From positions 96,286,001 to 96,350,000 of the forward strand of contig OX597815.1 of assembly GCA_951406725.2 (NCBI GenBank): a stretch of 64,000 nt of DNA. Direction: 5' to 3'. Of this stretch, positions 10,187-56,830 are shown in pieces. The position numbers and the translations under genes are program-made. The stretch comes from Octopus vulgaris. Taxonomy: Eukaryota. The notes under the pieces were generated by a model that saw only the letters and a program-made list of their open reading frames with translations, had not been told where the DNA came from and did no database searches. Positions within the stretch are counted from its first letter, which is position 1, and every line of letters starts with the position of its first letter.

Positions 10187-10305
10187 ACTTACGGTCATAT
10201 CAGGTTGAAAACACCGGTTACATCCGATCACCGAAGTTAAACAATATTGAGCCTAGTTAGTCCTTAGATGGATGGCCGCTTGAGAATCCTAGGTCCAATA
10301 AGCAT
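10187..10305 (+). pseudogene. 5S rRNA pseudogene
   Basis: acttacggtcatatcaggttgaaaacaccggtt..ccgatcaccgaagttaa..gagcctagttagt..ggatggccgcttgagaatcctaggt..taagca followed by a T-run. About 119 nt, colinear with metazoan 5S rRNA but with many substitutions. Confidence 0.9.
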
Positions 10306-31968: not shown

Positions 31969-32155
31969 TATATTTAAGAGATGAGGAATTATGTACAGTA
32001 ATTACATTATTTACATTATTTACATTTGACGGATATTTGTCCTCATATTTGTTGTTAACACAACGTTTCAGCTGATATAGCCTCCAGTCTTCATCAGGTG
32101 TCCTTGGGAGATTTCGAACCTGGGTTCTCATACCTAAGGGATTTTCGATGTTGTT
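31969..32155 (-). mobile_element. Short hammerhead-bearing repeat abutting (AAT)n (Penelope pLTR-like)
   Basis: Same family as 44681-44835 (+) and the fragment at 42892-42930. Confidence 0.75.
32058..32101 (-). ncRNA. Minimal type I hammerhead motif
   Basis: ACAC-CTGATGA-AGACTG..CAGCT-GAAACGTT-GTGT. Stem III is the palindrome AACGTT and the cleavage triplet is GUU. Confidence 0.75.
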
Positions 32156-32527: not shown

Positions 32528-32619
32528 AGAGAGAGGGAGAGAATGGCAGAGAGAAAATATTTGCCTCGCCCACAGTTTGGTACCGGGAAAAGTTGGTAGG
32601 GTGGAAGGGTGTTCGCATC

Positions 32620-33060
32620 AGCCTCATGGCAAAGCCGTCTTTTCATTAGAGTAGCTAGTTAGGAATATCTGAAGGAGATAAACAACACAAAAAAGGAAAG
32701 AACGAAGAGAAATATTTAACTGATTTTCTTTGACATAGCTAGGTAGGAATATTTGAAGAAGATAACAGAAAAAGATAAAGACGGAGAAGAAACTGTTAAC
32801 TGATTTTCTTTGGCCTTGTGCTGCTACCCTCATGGTAAAGCTGTCTTTTCATTAGTGTAGCAAGGTGGAATATCTGAAGAACATAAAGAAAACAATGAAA
32901 AGCGGGCAAAGACATTTTTAGCTGACTTCCTTTGGCGTAGCTAAGTAGGAATATTTAAAGAAGATAAACAAACAAAATGTGTAGTGGGAGAAAAAAATAA
33001 CAAACCTTTTTTGGCGTCGTGCTGCTAGCTTCATGGCAAAGTCGTCTTTACATTAGAGTA
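32620..33060. repeat. Degenerate tandem repeat, ~205-bp period with ~100-bp subrepeat
   Basis: tcatggcaaagccgtcttttcattag recurs at about 32624, 32830 and 33031. The submotif aggaatatYtgaag recurs about every 100 bp. Confidence 0.8.
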
Positions 33061-33158
33061 ACGGGAAGCTTTATGAAAATAGACAAAAGACGAAGGCAGG
33101 TGGAAAACAAACAAACAAATGTATTAGTATGGCGCTCAGGAAATATAAATAAAACAAG

Positions 33159-33196
33159 TCTTTAACGTTTCGAGCCTACGCTCTTCAACAGAAAGA
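33159..33196 (-). ncRNA. Hammerhead-like motif with non-canonical core CUGUUGA
   Basis: TCTTT-CTGTTGA-A-GAGC-GTAG-GCTC-GAAACGTT-AAAGA. Confidence 0.55.
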
Positions 33197-33361
33197 TACA
33201 CAGAGAGAAAAAAACACAGAAAGAAGGAGAGAAAAAAAATGCGTGCAGTAACTAACGAATCAACATGGCGATCTGATTTCGGCCAGAGGTCAAAGATCAA
33301 ACATGAGACGCGAGAGCGAAATTAGGGGAGATAATAGGGTTGAATGACTAGCTCCAACATA

Positions 33362-33745
33362 AGGGTGTGTGTGTGTGTGTGTGTGTGTGTATGAGAGAGT
33401 ATTAGTGCGTATGAGAGGTCTGGACGTGTGTATGTATTGGGTTGGTGTATGTATTAGTATGTAGTAGTATGTATAAGGATGTGTGTGTGTGTGTGTATGA
33501 GAGAGTATTAGTGCGTATGAGAGGTCTGGACGTGTGTATGTATAGGGTTGGTATATGTATTAGTATGTATTAGTATGTATTAGTACGTATTAGTATGTAT
33601 AAGGGTGTGTGTGTGTGTGTATGAGAGAGTATAAGTGCGTATGAGAGGTCTGGACGTGTGTATGTATAGGGTTGGTGTATGTATTAGTATGTATTAGTAT
33701 GTATTAGTACGTATTAGTATGTATTAGTTGGTGTATGTATTAGTA
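33362..33745. repeat. Three-copy ~120-bp minisatellite with internal (TG)n and (GTATTAGTAT)n
   Basis: atgagagagtattagtgcgtatgagaggtctggacgtg occurs three times. Confidence 0.9.
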
Positions 33746-34001
33746 TGGCACATCATATATGATGTGATGTGTAAAGTCGTGTGGTGTAGTGTGGAGAGAG
33801 GAGAAGAGGGGAGGGGGAGGATAGGAGGGGGAGAGAGGGGGAGAAGGAAGGGGAGGAGGAGGGGGGAGGAAGGAGGAAAGAGAGAGAGGGGGAGAGAGAA
33901 GGGGAGTGAGGGAGCAGAGGGAAGGGGAAGAGGGAAGGAGGGAGGTTGAAAGAGGGAAGAAGGGAAGGGGAGTAGGGGTGAAAGGATGAAGGACTGAAGA
34001 A

Positions 34002-34290
34002 TTAGGGGTCGGGGGGAAGGTAGGTGAGGAAGGGGGGAGAGTTGAGACCAAATGGCGTATAAGAGTGAAGAGAGAAGATTAATTCCTGTTCACGGCGCAA
34101 ACGGGAATCCGGATGGCCTCTGTGTAAGGACAAACCGAACACAGATAGGTGTTGCGAGGAGTGACCGGTGGAGCGGAAATGGCGTGAGACCGGTGTGTCG
34201 TTCGCAAGGTGGATGTCACGAAGGTGTTCCGCGAACCGGTCAGCCAAGCGGCGTCCCGTTTGTCCGATGTACAAGGAATGGCAGAGAGGT
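34002..34290 (-). pseudogene. Penelope GIY-YIG endonuclease, C-terminal part
   Basis: LCHSLYIGQTGRRLADRFAEHLRDI..PVSRHF..GH..RLRREQELIFSLHSYTPFGLN. Truncated at the 5' end at 34290. Confidence 0.92.
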
Positions 34291-34688
34291 AATAAGCGGA
34301 CAGCTTTATTCTTATTTTTATAAGAATGCCATATTAGTATGGCGATAACTATTATTTTCCAGGAACGCTGCCGTGATCTCTTTTAGAGAGACTTAGTAAT
34401 TTTAATATTTCTATTATTGAAAACAAGTGGATGTATTCCACCGAAACTAGGTAAATAACACCTTCGAACAGAGATTGTCAGAAGCGACACCTACTGGTCT
34501 GACTACGCTACATTGAAAAGGGGCAATACCCCGAAACGCGTCTGTAGCTGTCGATCAAGTAGTGTGGAGCGACTGACCTCCCTTGTTCGAAGGTTATATG
34601 GATACAGTTTGTGTATCAAATAGCTAACTTAAGGCGATGGCCTCATGGAGCAAATAAGCGGACAGCTTTATTCTTATTTTTATAAGAA
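34291..34688 (+). mobile_element. 362-bp hammerhead-containing unit with 36-bp terminal direct repeats
   Basis: aataagcggacagctttattcttatttttataagaa at 34291-34326 and 34653-34688. Non-coding, followed by (ATT)n. Confidence 0.85.
34507..34548 (+). ncRNA. Type I hammerhead ribozyme, U3:A8 core variant, apparently intact
   Basis: GCTACA-TTGAAAA-GGGG-CAATA-CCCC-GAAAC-GC-GTC-TGTAGC. Predicted cut after 34542. Stem I extends out to ccttcgaaca/tgttcgaagg. Confidence 0.85.
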
Positions 34689-34689
34689 A

Positions 34690-34754
34690 TTTTTAATTAT
34701 TATCCTCATTATCGTTATTATTATTATCATTATTATTATTATTATTATTATTAC

Positions 34755-34811
<57 letters not shown>

Positions 34812-34901
34812 CATCATTATTATTATTATCATCATCATTATTATTATTATTAATATTATTATTATTATTATTGTTATTATTATTATTATTATTATTATTA
34901 A

Positions 34902-34973
<72 letters not shown>

Positions 34974-34990
34974 CATTATTATTATTATTA
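34690..34990. repeat. (ATT)n microsatellite
   Basis: Read directly. Similar tracts at 30915-31005, 32165-32317, 38676-38735, 39686-39789, 40307-40404, 41137-41312, 42930-43030, 43884-43952 and 44525-44680. Confidence 0.98.
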
Positions 34991-37900
34991 TTTTTCCTCT
35001 TCTTTCAAATTTGCTTCCATTTCTTGCCGAGTGTCTTCCCGACTCCTAGGGCTAACAAACTCATAGTATACATTGGTAGACCATTAAACTAAACTCACTA
35101 GTTCGTTCATTTTTTTAAAAGTTAAATTAAAATACATGGGTAGTAATAGTTCTCACATCGTCAATGCTCTTCTCAATACGTGTGATGTACCAGTTAAGAC
35201 AAACTTTTGCACTTCTTGCAGGGATGATAAGCCAGGGATCATTCTCATATAATTTTCGGTTCCCTTCTTGATCATTCCTAGTGCTCCTACGATCACTGGT
35301 ATTGTAACCGCCTTGAGATGACACATTTTCTCAATTTCAATGAGTTGGTCTTTATATTTTCTGAGCTTGTCAAACTCTTTCGCCGAGATATTATGATCAC
35401 AGGGGATGCTCATGTCGATCAATAAGCAAACTTTATTGTTTTGGTCTTTCACAACAATATCCGGTTTATTGGCTTTCATGGTTCGATCTGTATGTACTGG
35501 AAAGTCCCACAGAATCGTTACATTTTCTCCTTCAGTTACAGCTTCAGGGTGGTGATTATACCACTCGTCGGAAGTTTGATATTGTAATGCCGACTTATTA
35601 GCCAGTGTAGATATTGGCCAACTCTGTCATGTCTTAATTTATACTCCACTGGTGCTAAGACTTTACATCCAGAGATTAGGTGGTCCACTGTTTCAATCAT
35701 GTTGTTGCAGAATCGGCATTTTGGGTCTGCTCCATTTTTCATCACATTGGGCTGGTAGTTCCGGGTTAATAGGCTTTGATCTTGAGCAGCCAGGTTGAAA
35801 CATTCGCTCTCTGCTTTTAGCCCGTAGCCACTGAAGGGTTTGCTTCTGGTCAACATCAGCTTGTTTGCTACGGGTCACATATTTGCCGTGCAGAGGTTTC
35901 TCCTCCCACCTATCAGCCAATTGCTCGTGCGCTTTTTTCGTTGCCATTATTTTCACCTTCTTTGCAACAATAGTTGCCTTGCTTCCCTCGGGTTGTTCAG
36001 TTTGGGTATCCTGCACGAGATCAATAGCAAATTTTTTGCTTTCCTTTATGATAGAATGAATCTTCTTTCGTCTCTCGTGATTTTCCACGAGCTTTAGCAT
36101 CCAGTCATTCGTTATTTCAAGATATTTGGCCAGTCCAATTGTGGTTGTTTTGTAAGCTAGTTCAAATTGGGTCAGGCCTCGACCTCCTTGAGCTCTGGGA
36201 AGTTAAAGGCAATCTACGTCTGCCTTTTGGTGGTGCATCCTATTACAACTCAGCAGCTTGCGTATTTTCCTATCTATATTCTTTGCTTCACTCATATTCC
36301 AGTTCAACACATTGTAGCTATAAGTAACAACTGGAACTGCTAAGGAATTTATAGCTAACACCTTGTTACGTGCATTTAGTTCAGGTTTCAGGACTGCACG
36401 AACTCTCCTATAACATTCCTTCCTGAACTTCTCTTTCATGCTTGCATGCTGAATACCAGAGCCTTCATTTATCCCTAAATATTTGTATGTTTGTTCTTGC
36501 TAAAGCTCTCTTATGACTGTGTCAACATCTAACAAGACTGAATTTGTGGTCTTCACTTTCCCTTTGTGGAAAGTGGCCTTGGCACACTTCTCAAGCCCAA
36601 ACTCCATCCCGATGTCATCGCTGAATGCTTTCACAGTGCGCAATAGGCCTTCAAGTTCATTATCGTCTTTACCATGTAGTCTTAAGTTATCCATATAAAA
36701 TAGATGGCTTATTTTTTTATTGGCAATTTTATACCCATACCTTGTTCTGTTTAATTCACTTGTAAGGGGTATTAGGGCTATGCAGAATATTAAAGGTGAA
36801 AGTGAGTCACCTTGAAAAATTCCACATTTGATGTTTATATTTTCTGAGGCAAGTACTCCATTAGAGTGGTATAATTGGAGATTCGTATTCTACAACGACA
36901 TATTGTGCTTCAGGAAGCTTGAAATCACAGGGGCCCCTTTTTGAAATCACAGGGCCCCCTTTTTGTTCAATGGGGAAAATATCGTTCTTCTCCATGAATG
37001 CATATGTTTTCTCCGCCAGGATAGATGTTAGGATTTTATACGTGGTGGATAGACAGGTTATAGGCCGGTAGTTTTTTGGAAGGTTAGTTTCGTTGTTCTT
37101 TGGGAGTAGGTAAGTAATACCACTTGCTAACTATTCAGGTGTTTTCTTTGGGTCTCTCATAATTCCATTGAGCAGCTGAACTAGTTTACCATGTGCGCAT
37201 GGGAGCGATGCGAGCGAGAAATGCGGCACCCTATATTTAACGGGGGATTTCCAATTATGGGCCTTCGTTAGTGCCTTTCTTAGGTCTGCTATTGTGATGT
37301 CTACCCATGCTTATTGTAAATTTTGGTAGGATCCTTCTGTTTGTATAATCCAGTCTGCACTTATGTTGTACGTCTTCTTGTCACTCCAAATCCTTTTCCA
37401 AAAGTTTTGAACTTCTTCCATGGGAGGGGGGTCTTTAACGGTTACTTTCTCCTTCCCTATTTCTATGTAGAATTTTTTTGCATTGGATGTGAACAGCTTA
37501 TTTTGCTTGTAAAACTTGTTTCTCTTCTCAAATCGTATTCTTTGGGCTTTTGCTTGGACATTTTGCTTCAGCGTTTCTTTTATTGATATCAGTTCTTCTC
37601 TTGATGAGGATCCAAATTTTCTCTTCATCTTTCTTCCTGTTCTGGATCTTACATCATTTCCAAATATTAGTTCATTTAATATCGATATTTCTCCTCTCAT
37701 AAATTCAATCTCTTTTTCAATTTTACTTCTCCAGGTTTGATTTCTTCCCAGGTTTGGTTTTCTTTGTTTTTTTGGGAGCAGACAGTTGGTTTCAATTGCC
37801 CTAGCAGAAGCGTAAATAATTTCATTTAACTCAGTAAAATCAGGTTTTAATTCTTGTATTATTTCATTTGTTACATAGTTGCCAATTTGGATTTGTTTTT

Positions 37901-38671
37901 TTATTTTGGTTTGTATTTGAGAGTTTATGAAGTGGTTCTCTATCATTCATACTTGTATGTCTTGCAACTTCAAGCGTATTCAGGATGTTCTGCCTCATTT
38001 CTGCCATAGACTCTATGTGTTCTTCAGCAAATGCGAGATCTTCAGTTACTGTTGTTTTATCATTTTCCTGGCTATCTTTAACAGGTTCAATAGAATTTCT
38101 TTTATCTTCAGGCCTTTGCGTACTTTGGTCAGATGGCAGTCTTTCAATTAAACCTCGTTGCGGGCTATACTGTTCATCTGATTCTTCATTTCCTTTGTGT
38201 CTTATATTTATGTCATTTTCCGTTGCGTGCTTGATCGCGCTTATTTCACTGTCTGTGAGTCTGTTATTTCTAAGGATATCCCTCCACACATTTGCCAATT
38301 TGTTCTCGTCCAAATAGGGCCTTCTGTCTTGATTCCGTGTTCTCCATATACTGTAAGAGTTTGCGGTGTGTCTCTCTTGAGATGGCCTACCTAATGCATA
38401 GTAATAAGCGTATATTACTTCTTTATACTCTTCTCGGGTCCATTTGTTCCGCTTACATTTTTTCTTTCTGTGGTGGTTGTGGTGGTGAACTTCGAGAGCT
38501 CGAGTTGGGGAATTTCCCGTTCAAGTGACCATCCATGTCCGTTTCGGAGAAGAGTTTGTGCCAGTTGATGAATGTTCGATCCCAGGCTGGCTCTTCCGTG
38601 GGGCACGCGCTTCCAGATTAACCATAGGACAAGCGATTTGGTATACTGATTTAGTTTTCTTTTTAGTTTCC

Positions 38672-38739: not shown

Positions 38740-40390
<1,651 letters not shown>

Positions 40391-43032: not shown

Positions 43033-43880
43033 CCCTTCATGGTAAATACTGGACTAAACTAAACGCAAAAGAAATAGACAAAGAAAAATCCCAGCAATGG
43101 TTGAGAAGCTGAGGACTCAAAGCAGAAACAGAGGGATTTTTAATTGCAGCACAAGACCAAAGCCTCCCCACCAGAAATTACCAAAAACATGTAATGAAAA
43201 TAAATATTACAAGTAACTGCAGAATATGTGGAGATGGACAAGAAACAATAAATCATATTATCTCTAGCTGCCCAGTCCTGGCTAAGAAGGAATATATTCA
43301 CAGACATGACAGAGTTGGAACCTACATACACTGGAAGCTATGCCAACATTATGGAATAACAACAGAAAAAAGATGGTATAGGCACACACCAGAAAAGGTC
43401 ACAGAAAACGAGAAAGCAACCATACTCTGGGATATGCCCATACACACAGACAGAGAAATTAAGACCAACAGACCAGATATAGTTGTCAGAGACCATGAAG
43501 AAAAAAATGCTTTCTAATTGATGTATCAATACCGGCTGATGACAACGTGTCTCTAAAAGAAATGGAGAAACTCTCAAAATACAAAGACCTGGAAATAGAG
43601 GTAACTAGAATGTGGAATCTGAAAACAGAAACAATTCCTATCATAGTAGGTGCATTAGGCATGATAAAAAAATATTCAGACAAATACATAACAAAAACAC
43701 CAGGACTTACAAACACATATAACATACAGAAAATTACACTACTAGGCACTGCACACATCCTACGCAGAACACTTTCCATACAATAACCATCAGAGCATCA
43801 CAACAAATCACAGCACATACCCACGGCACACAGAGCTACGCTCGGTAGTGAAGTGAGAGCACGCTATAAAAATAAAACTA

Positions 43881-43883
<3 letters not shown>
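43031..43883 (+). mobile_element. 5'-truncated young Dong/R4-like LINE (CCHC, RLE, 3' UTR)
   Basis: PLHGKYW..CRICGDGQETINHIISSC..RHDRVG..NRPDIVV..KYKDLEIEV. (AAT)n on both sides. Confidence 0.95.
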
Positions 43884-43952
<69 letters not shown>

Positions 43953-48167: not shown

Positions 48168-48320
48168 AGAGTTTACAAAAAAGACAAAAGACGAAGACAG
48201 GTGGTGTACAAAACAAACAGATATATTAGTATAACGCTCAGAAATAGAAAAAAGTATTTTACGTTTCGAGCCTACTCTTTTCTACACGAAGGGACACAGA
48301 AAAAACAAGGAGAGAAAAAA
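48165..48320 (-). mobile_element. Solo Penelope pLTR-like copy (33060-33240 family), decayed
   Basis: gacaaaagacgaagacaggtgg..acgctcagaaa..acgtttcgagccta. Confidence 0.8.
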
Positions 48321-48390
48321 GGAGTGAAACAAATATATATAACAAATATATATGAAAGATGGTATAAAAATGCAATTTTAAAGATGTTTA

Positions 48391-53453: not shown

Positions 53454-53509
53454 AGCCGGATCGCAATTTCAGATTTTGATGCAGGCCATCTTAATCTTCA
53501 TCAGCGACT
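53454..53509 (-). ncRNA. Type I hammerhead ribozyme motif, apparently intact
   Basis: AGTCG-CTGATGA-AGATT-AA-GATG-GCCTG-CATC-AA-AATCT-GAAAT-TGCG-ATC-CGGCT with an AUC cleavage triplet. Confidence 0.82.
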
Positions 53510-53579: not shown

Positions 53580-53735
53580 ATTTTCTCTGTTTATGTCCTC
53601 GTGTTTCTTTCTGTTGAAGAGCATAGGCTCAAAACGTAAAAGACTTTCTCACCTTCTCGAGCGTTAAACTAATACACCTGCTTGTTGTTTATACACCTGT
53701 CTTTGTCTTTTGTTTTTCTGTTCATTTCAACTATA
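53580..53735 (+). mobile_element. Solo Penelope pLTR-like copy with the CUGUUGA motif (53606-53643)
   Basis: tctttctgttgaagagcataggctcaaaacgtaaaagac..cacctgtctttgtcttttg matches the reverse complement of 33070-33200. Confidence 0.8.
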
Positions 53736-55199: not shown

Positions 55200-56830
55200 C
55201 TTTTTGAAAATTTTCTCCGAAGACTTTTGAAAAATTTTCTGAAAATTTTCCTCAAAAACTTTTGAAAATTTTCCCCAAAAATTTTTTAAAAATTTTTTGA
55301 AAGGCTTCCGCAAAAGTTTTTGAAATTTTAAAAAAATTTTCAAAAAATTTTGGGGGAATATTTTCGAAAATGTTTGAAAAATTTTCAAATAAGTTTTTGA
55401 AAATTTTTGGGGAAAACTTTTAAGAAAATTTCTAAAAATTTTTGGGGCAAATTTTCAAATAATTTTCAAAAAATTTTCAAGAATTAAAAAAAAATTTTGG
55501 GGGAAAATTTTCAAAATGTTTGAAAAATTTTCAAAAAATTTTTGGGTAAAATTGAGGAAAATTTTCAAAAAAGTTTTGAAAAACTTTTGGAGAAAATTAT
55601 CAAAAACATTTTTCTAAAATTTTCGGAAAAATTTTCAAATAATATTTGAAAAATTTTAGGGAAAATTTTCAAAAAATTTTTGAAAAATATTTGGGGAAAA
55701 TTATTTTATTCTAAAATTTTTGGGGAAAATTTTCAAAAAAGAATTTTTAAAACTTTTTGAGGAAAATGTTCAAAAAAATTTTTCTAAAATTTTTGGGAAA
55801 ATTATTGAGAAAAAATTTTCAAAAAACTTTCAAAAAATTTTTGTGGAAAATTTTCGAAAAATTTTTCTAAAGTTTTGTGGAAAATTTTGAAATAATTTTT
55901 CAAAAATTTTGGGGGAAAATTTTCAAATAATTTTTCTAAAATTTTCGGGAAAATTTTTGAAAAATTTTTGATGAAAATTTTGAAAATATTTAAAAAATAT
56001 ATTGGGGAAATTCTTCAAAAAATGTTTCTAAGATTTTGGGAGAAATTTTCAAATAAGTTTTCAAAAATTTTTGGGGAAAATTTTCAAAAAATTTTCAAAT
56101 TATTTTCACAAATTTAAAATAAATTTTGGGGGAAAGTTTTCAAAGTTTTCTAAAATTTTTAGGGAAAATTTTAAAAAATGTTTTCAAAAATTTTTGAAGA
56201 ATTTAAAAAACTTTTTGAGGAAAATTAAAAAAAAAATTTTTGAGAAAAGTTTTCAAAAAATTTTCAAAAATTTTTGTGGAAAATTTTCAAGGAATGTTTG
56301 TGGAAAATTTTCAAAAAATTTTTCAAAAATTTTTGGGGAAAATTTTCAAATAATTTTTCTAAAATTTTCGGGAAAATTTTTGTAAAGTTTTTTGGAGAAA
56401 ATTTTGAAAATATTTAAAAAATATATTGGGGAAAACCTTCAAAAAATTTTTCTTAAATTTTGGGGGAATTTTTAAATAATTTTTCAAAAATTTATGAGGA
56501 AAATTTTCCAAAGATTTTGGGGAAAATTATTACAAAAAGTTTTTGTAAAATTTTGGGGGAAATTTTCAAATAATGTTTCAAACATTTTTCGGGAAAATTT
56601 TCAAATAATTTTTCCAAAATTTTCTGGAAAATTTTGGAATAATTTTGGGGAAATGTTTCAAAAAATTTTAGAAATATTTTGTGGGGAAAACTTAAAAAAA
56701 AATTTTTTTTAAGTTTTTGGGGAAAATTTTAAAAAAAGTTTTCAAAAATTTTTGGGGAAAATTGTCAAAAATTATTCAAAACTTTAGGGGTTAATTTTCA
56801 AAAATTTTTGAGGAAAATTTTGAAAATATC
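55200..56830. repeat. 1.6-kb degenerate satellite built on palindromic GAAAATTTTC
   Basis: Alternating A4-6 and T4-6 tracts with a short period. A longer block recurs at about 55912 and 56335. Confidence 0.92.

Follow-up and report, generated by a model that had tools for sequence, protein, structure and literature searches.

The closest described relatives of the locus analysed here are the metazoan non-LTR retrozymes. In the available text of Cervera and de la Pena (2020, PMC7229834), units of 350-390 bp are described in mussels and units of 330 and 350 bp in the axolotl. Most invertebrate retrozymes are described there as cleaving as monomers, while the axolotl motif, which has a 1-bp helix III and a palindromic loop, was cleaved to 6% as a monomer and far better as a dimer (PMC7229834). 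Among predicted retrozyme dimers from Xenopus, one of nine was cleaved in vitro, as stated in the accessible part of the preprint (bioRxiv 2026.07.22.740005). Li, Clavereau and Pollet treat retrozyme monomers as Penelope derivatives (bioRxiv 10.64898/2026.07.22.740005). As to the catalytic core, U3:A8 was published in 2011 as a natural covariant of the C3/G8 consensus (PMC3088659). In 2014, hammerheads with U3:A8 were described in the Penelope repeats of Schistosoma mansoni (PMC4209133), as minimal motifs of the element Cercyon; S. mansoni has about 1,300 of them, and they are stated to be active in vitro. In a paper on the giant squid, 235 hammerhead-1 matches were counted.

The Penelope elements themselves leave characteristic insertions. 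Inverted, 5'-truncated partners and tails of 30-40 bp are reported as typical of them (PMC8557442). The copies are usually arranged head-to-head and junctions with microhomology occur; in the portion of PMC3846280 at hand, no cross-mobilisation between two Penelope types was found. At ATT, both strands were cut and extended by a purified Penelope protein, for which a dimer was modelled and which started inside the RNA near a stem-loop (PMC11167929).

In the window, i.e. the whole 64-kb stretch of DNA that was analysed, both kinds of element meet. The locus probably represents 1.1 units, standing alone, of a highly repeated 362-bp family that is non-coding, carries a U3:A8 type I hammerhead and is likely a non-LTR retrozyme of animals. 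Penelope enzymes likely reverse-transcribed this copy and placed it head-to-head with a cDNA of Penelope. The window as a whole is AT-rich, animal-type and dense in microsatellites and retroelement pieces. The features referred to below are the following.

33063-34288, minus strand: Penelope-like element, truncated at its 5' end, recognised by protein similarity and repeat comparison.
33159-33196, minus strand: minimal hammerhead of the Penelope element, core CUGUUGA, with position 6 changed.
34002-34288, minus strand: C-terminal GIY-YIG piece of the Penelope element, recognised by similarity to protein P0002.
34286-34290, no strand: head-to-head junction, placed by contig comparison.
34290-34652, plus strand: one family unit (the 362 bp are 34291-34652; T34290 is also a family letter), read as a non-LTR retrozyme monomer.
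34324-34344, plus strand, against 33116-33132, minus strand: complement to the Penelope sense RNA, including the hairpin 34328-34343.
34391-34453, plus strand: motif B, a three-way junction, recognised by pattern and shuffles.
34461-34593, plus strand: long extended stem I, from fold prediction and variant pairing.
34507-34548, plus strand: type I hammerhead A, recognised by pattern search and folding.
34653-34688, plus strand: terminal redundancy, an exact duplicate of 34291-34326.
34696-34992, no strand: (ATT)99 array in the right flank, context outside the element.
About 35153-38520, minus strand: LINE pieces with reverse transcriptase (RT), beyond the (ATT)99 array, context outside the element.

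Like the metazoan retrozymes as described in the available sources, the unit is non-coding, 362 bp long and below 50% GC, its hammerhead has a 6-bp helix I and a 4-bp helix II, its stable fold leaves the ribozyme exposed, and it co-occurs with Penelope. Its weak palindromic helix III resembles that of the axolotl HHR_Amex1. Unlike the retrozymes described in PMC7229834, the family has U3:A8 as its majority core, a defective second junction lies within the unit, and the window locus is a solo 1.1-mer fused to Penelope. In contrast to most invertebrate retrozymes, the window unit is predicted to depend on dimers. The retrozymes of Li, Clavereau and Pollet show the same coexistence of solo full-length copies with dimers and multimers, and mobilisation by Penelope enzymes is proposed for them as well. 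Their proposal, as far as the consulted part of the preprint goes, is based on co-occurrence and on pLTR homology in vertebrates, whereas here there is a physical head-to-head junction and no homology to the neighbouring pLTR. The compensatory core is the same as in the Schistosoma mansoni motifs and in the covariants of Perreault et al. 2011 (PMC3088659). In those sources, however, the U3-A8 hammerheads are minimal motifs with a long helix II in pLTRs, or single motifs, while here the core sits in a canonical geometry and in a short non-coding unit.

The family was followed in the contigs of public sequencing runs. The stretch or part of it is present in 20 of the 24 listed runs, under 5 organism labels. 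The contigs of four of the 24 were aligned to 34150-34720 at 80% likeness, namely X2 and X11 (probably DNA) and X13 and X19 (possibly RNA). The RNA status of X13 and X19 is a guess, as no listed holder is recorded as RNA, and depth was not taken as expression. X11, with 9 records only and 7 of 29 bins uncovered, was left out for claims of absence. The unit clearly belongs to a highly repeated family, of which many variants are observed; in X2 the summed contig depth, which is not a copy number, is 38,790-1,511,902 over the unit versus 105.6 in the right flank. A second copy of the unit was not found anywhere in the 64-kb window.

The unit is bordered by a direct repeat of 36 bp (34291-34326 and 34653-34688), exact and with a period of 362, just as the first-pass annotation had it. 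It measures just 36 bp because 34652 deviates from the family letter, which is T in 99.99% (X2) and 98% (X19) of the aligned contig depth. If the family sequence is taken as the standard, the redundancy amounts to 37 nt, and to 41 nt when the microhomology at the junction is included. It stops at the 3' base of a hairpin, 34671-34688. That the repeat could be a target-site duplication was ruled out, as the family sequence itself reads through it. With a GC content of 40% and a longest ATG frame of 21 codons the unit is non-coding, and it shows the sequence properties of a metazoan non-LTR retrozyme (150-450 bp, non-coding, GC below 50%, a type I hammerhead). The retrozyme-like nature that had been proposed for it is supported.

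The predicted fold is stable. The whole 398 nt have a z of -7.6 on the plus strand (0 of 100 shuffles as good) and the minus strand is also stably folded, with a z of -7.4. Folded as a circle, the unit reaches -113.2 kcal/mol (z -7.4, 0 of 100 shuffles), which corresponds to a stable self-paired monomer. The long extended stem I that had been reported could be confirmed at -59.3 kcal/mol (z -7.0, 0 of 300 shuffles), with the qualification that it contains bulges.

Hammerhead A lies within this stem. Its helix I is formed by 34507-34512 with 34543-34548 (6 bp, pair probabilities 0.94-1.0) and is followed by the core TTGAAAA (34513-34519), with U3 at 34513 and A8 at 34518. Helix II, GGGG/CCCC at 34520-34532, has a pair probability of 0.98. 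The GAAA is found at 34533-34536 and the GUC at 34540-34542, with the predicted cut after C34542. The UUGAAAA core and the GUC site described before were thus recovered. The core and cleavage-site elements of a type I motif are present: the 3-8 pair, the GAAA, the A15.1-U16.1 pair (A34536-U34541) and an NUH site. The stems had been called perfect, which is true of helices I and II and not of helix III (34536-34541). The latter consists of an A-U and a C-G pair with a 2-nt loop, and its pair probability in the monomer is 0.0. The same letters form the palindrome ACGCGU, for which folding predicts a self-duplex of -8.9 kcal/mol. By this prediction only the palindromic dimer form of helix III is stable, a known dimer-type condition that does not disqualify the hammerhead, and self-cleavage is predicted to occur chiefly in dimers of the RNA.

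The strict hammerhead pattern has two matches in the real window, hammerhead A and a site at 53504 (minus strand); over 60 shuffled windows it matched 3 times, or 0.05 per window. In the Rfam search, hammerhead A had no match at the gathering score or at E values up to 10, and pattern scans of the minus strand of the unit gave no hammerhead motif. The exact pattern had 0 matches in viral contigs. Its sole match among metagenome contigs (L001) falls on the last part of a bacterial gene, has no helix I and was dismissed as chance. When the pattern was relaxed, two loci of viral contigs matched (L002 and L003); both lack helix I and any likeness to the unit and were likewise discarded. Other hammerhead-like motifs, all with a C3:G8 core, were seen at about 32060-32100 (minus), 53504 (minus), 47214 (minus) and 9858 (plus); among them only 53504 passes the strict pattern.

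The U3:A8 core is compensatory, as had been claimed from the pairing of the two positions, and it departs from the C3/G8 consensus as a known covariant (PMC3088659, PMC4209133). As a published natural variant, and as the majority state of the family, it is no longer a surprise. In the 40 of 57 variant rows listed, no variant falls in the core (34513-34519), in the GAAA (34533-34536) or in the GUC (34540-34542). For X11 and X19, the tally of the kinds of change rules out that C3 or G8 reaches 5%; for T>C and A>G, one place each in X2 and three each in X13 lie outside the listed rows and may be in the core. U3:A8 is therefore the majority state of the family, which the window copy inherited and did not gain by itself.

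The variants also bear on the fold. Among the 30 listed in the unit, 18 are unpaired, 7 keep their pair via a G-U wobble, 3 break a pair, and the remaining 2 are the two sides of one double change in the extended stem, 34502 A>G and 34551 T>C. Pair-breaking variants would be expected 8.9 times, and as few as 3 were reached in 66 of 20000 randomisations. This test is supportive only, given that the variants do not count as independent and that the predicted fold is that of the window copy. The wobble-keeping variants are of the class expected for the plus (hammerhead) strand in 7 cases versus 1 of the reverse class. The family variants thus avoid the core and spare the predicted plus-strand fold, which gives supportive indications of constraint on an RNA. 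The selection that had been postulated is retained in this form, as constraint on the RNA of the family, and not as selection of U3:A8 in the window copy. RNA editing as the source of an excess of A>G changes is not supported, as the same variants are present in DNA runs. By eye, a loose end before 34327 in X13 and X19 appears to be a diverged version of the hairpin 34309-34326 with two pairs exchanged.

It is quite unlikely that the unit is a satellite or SINE-like repeat with a fossil hammerhead that no longer cleaves. The weak helix III would agree with a fossil, many predicted retrozymes fail in vitro (one of nine was cleaved in the preprint as available, bioRxiv 2026.07.22.740005), and motif B demonstrates that hammerhead-like remnants may persist in the unit. 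Yet the 14 core and cleavage-site positions of hammerhead A are without a listed variant while the matching position of motif B varies, and the variation spares the fold of one strand.

Motif B is the second hammerhead-like junction of the unit and is absent from the first-pass annotation. It has the same core UUGAAAA (34417-34423), a 5-bp helix II (34427-34441), a GAAA (34443-34446) and a 7-bp closing helix (34391-34397/34446-34452), with a GUA (34396-34398) in the position of a type III site. The core pattern was obtained in 67 of 20000 shuffles and the full pattern in 11 of 20000. The base that matches A15.1, 34446, is changed from A to G in 9% (X2), 20% (X13) and 34% (X19) of the aligned depth. 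Motif B was rejected for now as an active ribozyme, because in the type I as well as in the type III reading its helix I does not come into register; a substrate in trans was not found in the unit or in Penelope. It is probably structural or a remnant, and may go back to a ribozyme that decayed or to an old duplication within the unit.

The contigs run from the end of the unit back into its start. Joints that go back by one unit length were found in X13 at depth 126 and in X19 at depth 2.2, where the shorter side has 62 and 45 letters, respectively; both extend past the terminal repeat. Two head-to-tail joints of one unit length occur in the DNA run X2. Such joints, present in three of the four runs, do not separate tandem arrays from permuted solo copies at the level of contigs, and a terminal repeat longer than the 31-letter assembly word may alone close a cycle in the assembly graph. 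Since they are also found in DNA, a joint in the putative RNA does not demonstrate a circle. The search for circularising reads in RNA-seq that had been suggested is uninformative on this point: closure at the ribozyme site restores the sequence that the genome already has, and with head-to-tail joints present in X2, reads across the junction are unable to demonstrate a circle. A joint of opposite strands within the unit (34312/34381), seen in X2 and X19, suggests a family copy with an internal inversion.

These contigs also speak to the very unlikely case that the unit is not an independent retrozyme and represents the pseudo-LTR and tail of another autonomous Penelope-like family, in a 5'-truncated insertion. 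Hammerheads with U3:A8 are known from Penelope repeats (PMC4209133), the redundancy of 36-41 nt has the size of a tail, and retrozymes and pLTRs are related according to the part of the preprint seen (bioRxiv 2026.07.22.740005). The contigs, on the other hand, loop from the unit end into the unit start, and none of the 24 loose ends examined (of 251, a sample that leaves this explanation some room) gives a common coding flank or an RT or GIY-YIG frame for the unit. The unit contains no ORF start of more than 21 codons. Its hammerhead has the canonical 6-bp helix I, and a 4-bp helix II directly after A9, without the long helix II or the extra base between 9 and 10.1 of the Penelope minimal motifs as described in PMC4209133.

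The neighbour of the unit on its left is a Penelope-like element on the minus strand. In its GIY-YIG piece, 82 aa match the C-terminal end of P0002, a protein with an RT (RVT_1), at 44%. The other protein match, P0001, hits GIY-YIG weakly and below the cut-off, and the fragment alone has no Pfam match. The 3' region is rich in simple repeats, with the 3' end near 33063. In X2, X13 and X19, loose ends show that other Penelope copies extend beyond 34288 and are unlike the window there; by eye, their continuation reads in frame as the cysteine-bearing stretch ahead of the YIG motif in P0001. The window element is therefore truncated at 34288. Its minimal hammerhead has an extra base before helix II and no helix III loop, and is also missed by Rfam. 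Three 3' ends of this one family are found in the window, at 33159-33196 (minus), at about 48177-48333 (minus) and at 53582-53713 (plus); the other two copies stop at about the same point of the element as the present one does near 33063, finish in (TA)n and have decayed hammerhead regions. The remainder of the element, i.e. the RT part, was not found elsewhere in the 64-kb window.

The unit (plus) and Penelope (minus) are joined 5' end to 5' end. The Penelope match ends at 34288, and the GAG at 34286-34288 is common to it and to the end of the family unit, giving a 3-bp microhomology; G34289 fits neither partner and T34290 fits the family. At its other end, the unit copy is followed by ATT. 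None of the contigs shown spans the retrozyme-Penelope junction, and no target-site duplication of at least 5 nt was found around the composite. Judged from their letter differences to the closest contigs (2 of 139 for the Penelope piece; 1-4 of 89-129 for the unit), both parts appear similarly young. A direct join to a 5'-truncated Penelope had been noted before and is correct, with the amendment that the two parts are opposite in orientation.

Like the composite Penelope insertions described in the available parts of PMC8557442, PMC3846280 and PMC11167929, the locus combines a 5' head-to-head arrangement, microhomology, an extension of tail size and an AT-rich or microsatellite target. In size, the 36-bp redundancy matches the 30-40 bp Penelope tail, which is a resemblance only (PMC8557442, PMC11167929). 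The copy also ends at the foot of a hairpin and has ATT beside it, as would suit the start near a stem-loop and the cutting at ATT seen with the purified protein (PMC11167929). In those insertions the inverted partner is a copy of the same element, whereas its place is taken here by a non-coding family that is unrelated. That the published partners come from the same Penelope family counts against a co-insertion, and so does the lack of cross-mobilisation between two Penelope types in PMC3846280. For this one locus, co-insertion by Penelope enzymes is plausible, at slightly less than an even chance.

The same retrozyme family could also have met Penelope by separate insertions in a repeat-rich patch, joined later by insertion at a truncated end or by a microhomology-mediated deletion. 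This history is possible and carries real weight, at clearly less than an even chance. Both families are abundant, with three Penelope 3' ends in 64 kb, and the 3-bp microhomology would fit end joining. Deletions of this kind have been described for Penelope copies (PMC3846280, as far as available), and one of them might at the same time have cut a tandem array down to 1.1 units. The lack of a target-site duplication agrees with it, as does the left-flank repeat that is not resumed at the right. However, the head-to-head geometry without a gap, the tail-sized redundancy and the similar young ages match a single Penelope-type event, and the Penelope remainder is absent elsewhere in the window.

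A plain template switch had been the explanation first offered, in which the Penelope RT would have left its own RNA at 34288 and gone on along a retrozyme RNA. This is improbable. The direct junction with microhomology agrees with it, and antisense templates have been proposed for head-to-head Penelope structures in the text at hand of PMC3846280. Because the parts lie in opposite orientation, though, an antisense retrozyme RNA would be needed; had the RT moved to the sense RNA, both parts would point the same way, and they do not. The constrained strand is the plus strand, by the 7 wobble-keeping variants versus 1, and the minus strand of the unit is without a hammerhead. The head-to-head arrangement with its 3-bp microhomology fits a Penelope-type inverted 5' junction better than a plain template switch. 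The link with Penelope itself is supported.

The surroundings contain further repeats. On the left, a degenerate tandem repeat of about 205 bp (32600-33062, 76% alike) abuts the 3' end of Penelope and is not resumed at the right. The ATT array and the LINE beyond it together span 34696-38520; the LINE is frameshifted and holds an RT and part of a restriction-like endonuclease. The best named relative of a neighbouring LINE piece is an Octopus sinensis protein at 69% (2 of 97 matches are named), and we take the element to resemble the TAA-targeting R4/Dong group. Together with the repeat landscape, this match hints at a cephalopod, although a transposon match is not proof of the host. An inverted pair of 586 bp (39722-40307 and 43366-43951, 97% alike, 3 kb apart) apparently consists of pieces of the same LINE type. 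A 5S rRNA-like sequence at 10187-10304 (plus; Rfam 71.6 bits), with several broken pairs and beside (TA)n, is probably a pseudogene or SINE head, and a degenerate minisatellite of 11-12 bp with A/T tracts extends over about 55200-56800.

Under the preferred explanation, co-insertion of a retrozyme and a Penelope cDNA, the following sequence of events may be proposed. Following the published retrozymes as described in the accessible text (PMC7229834, PMC7761336), tandem copies elsewhere would be transcribed by read-through. By the same analogy, two ACGCGU palindromes would pair to give a 6-bp helix III, the RNA would be cleaved after each GUC, and a host ligase would close the 362-nt monomer; such circles would come only from the tandem copies elsewhere. 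A cDNA longer than one unit, copied from a circle or a multimer, would yield the 1.1-mer. The remaining steps are the weakest. A Penelope RT-endonuclease would cut and extend both strands. One cDNA would be primed on the Penelope RNA and run from about 33063 rightwards, and the other would be primed on the retrozyme RNA, start at 34688 and go leftwards for one full round and a further 37-41 nt. At the 3-bp microhomology, the two 5' ends would finally be joined.

The unit has no sense-strand similarity to the adjacent Penelope (the longest shared word is 10), and a short complement to its sense RNA. At 34332-34344, 13 nt are exactly complementary, or 18 nt with a bulge. The predicted duplex has -21.4 kcal/mol with a 3-nt bulge, and 22 of 3000 shuffles were as good. 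It lies just downstream of the Penelope hammerhead and near the position of the unit copy's 3' end. The complement was spotted post hoc, is partly locked in a hairpin, and differs in the other two Penelope copies of the window. A more inclusive reading would have one Penelope RT-endonuclease dimer copy its own RNA on one strand and a retrozyme circle on the other, with the retrozyme docking via the 13-18 nt complement beside the priming site and with U3:A8 fixed beside a silenced second hammerhead. Taken together, this combination is unlikely.

The window copy itself had been put forward as the best candidate for an active circular RNA. This cannot be maintained: there is one intact hammerhead with a helix III of the dimer type, and with a single hammerhead the copy could be cut at most once and could not release an RNA of unit length. 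By the definition in the available part of the preprint (bioRxiv 2026.07.22.740005), an active retrozyme has two consecutive hammerheads; the window locus has one and fits the monomer class. Its letter at 34459 is shared by no aligned contig of the four runs, that at 34652 by hardly any, and that at 34510 by none of X13. By these differences the contigs do not seem to stem from it, a comparison in which the contigs come from other individuals and lose rare variants. The copy is likely a dead-end by-product and not a source of RNA circles, and has no known promoter.

Neither a retrozyme family of canonical geometry with U3:A8 nor a head-to-head fusion of retrozyme and Penelope was found in the literature searched (partial journal coverage, main texts only). 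For now, the locus extends the list of retrozyme-like families by one, which has two unusual features and a junction that is suggestive. A U3:A8 core fixed in a family of canonical geometry is a warning that searches based on C3/G8, as well as Rfam, miss such families. The enzyme that mobilises animal non-LTR retrozymes has so far been inferred from co-occurrence and sequence kinship, as presented in the available parts of PMC7229834, PMC7761336 and bioRxiv 2026.07.22.740005. If the co-insertion is true, this locus would be direct genomic evidence of Penelope enzymes mobilising animal retrozymes in trans. Head-to-head retrozyme-Penelope junctions with a tail-sized redundancy, if enriched genome-wide, would then be a countable footprint of mobilisation that names the partner family.
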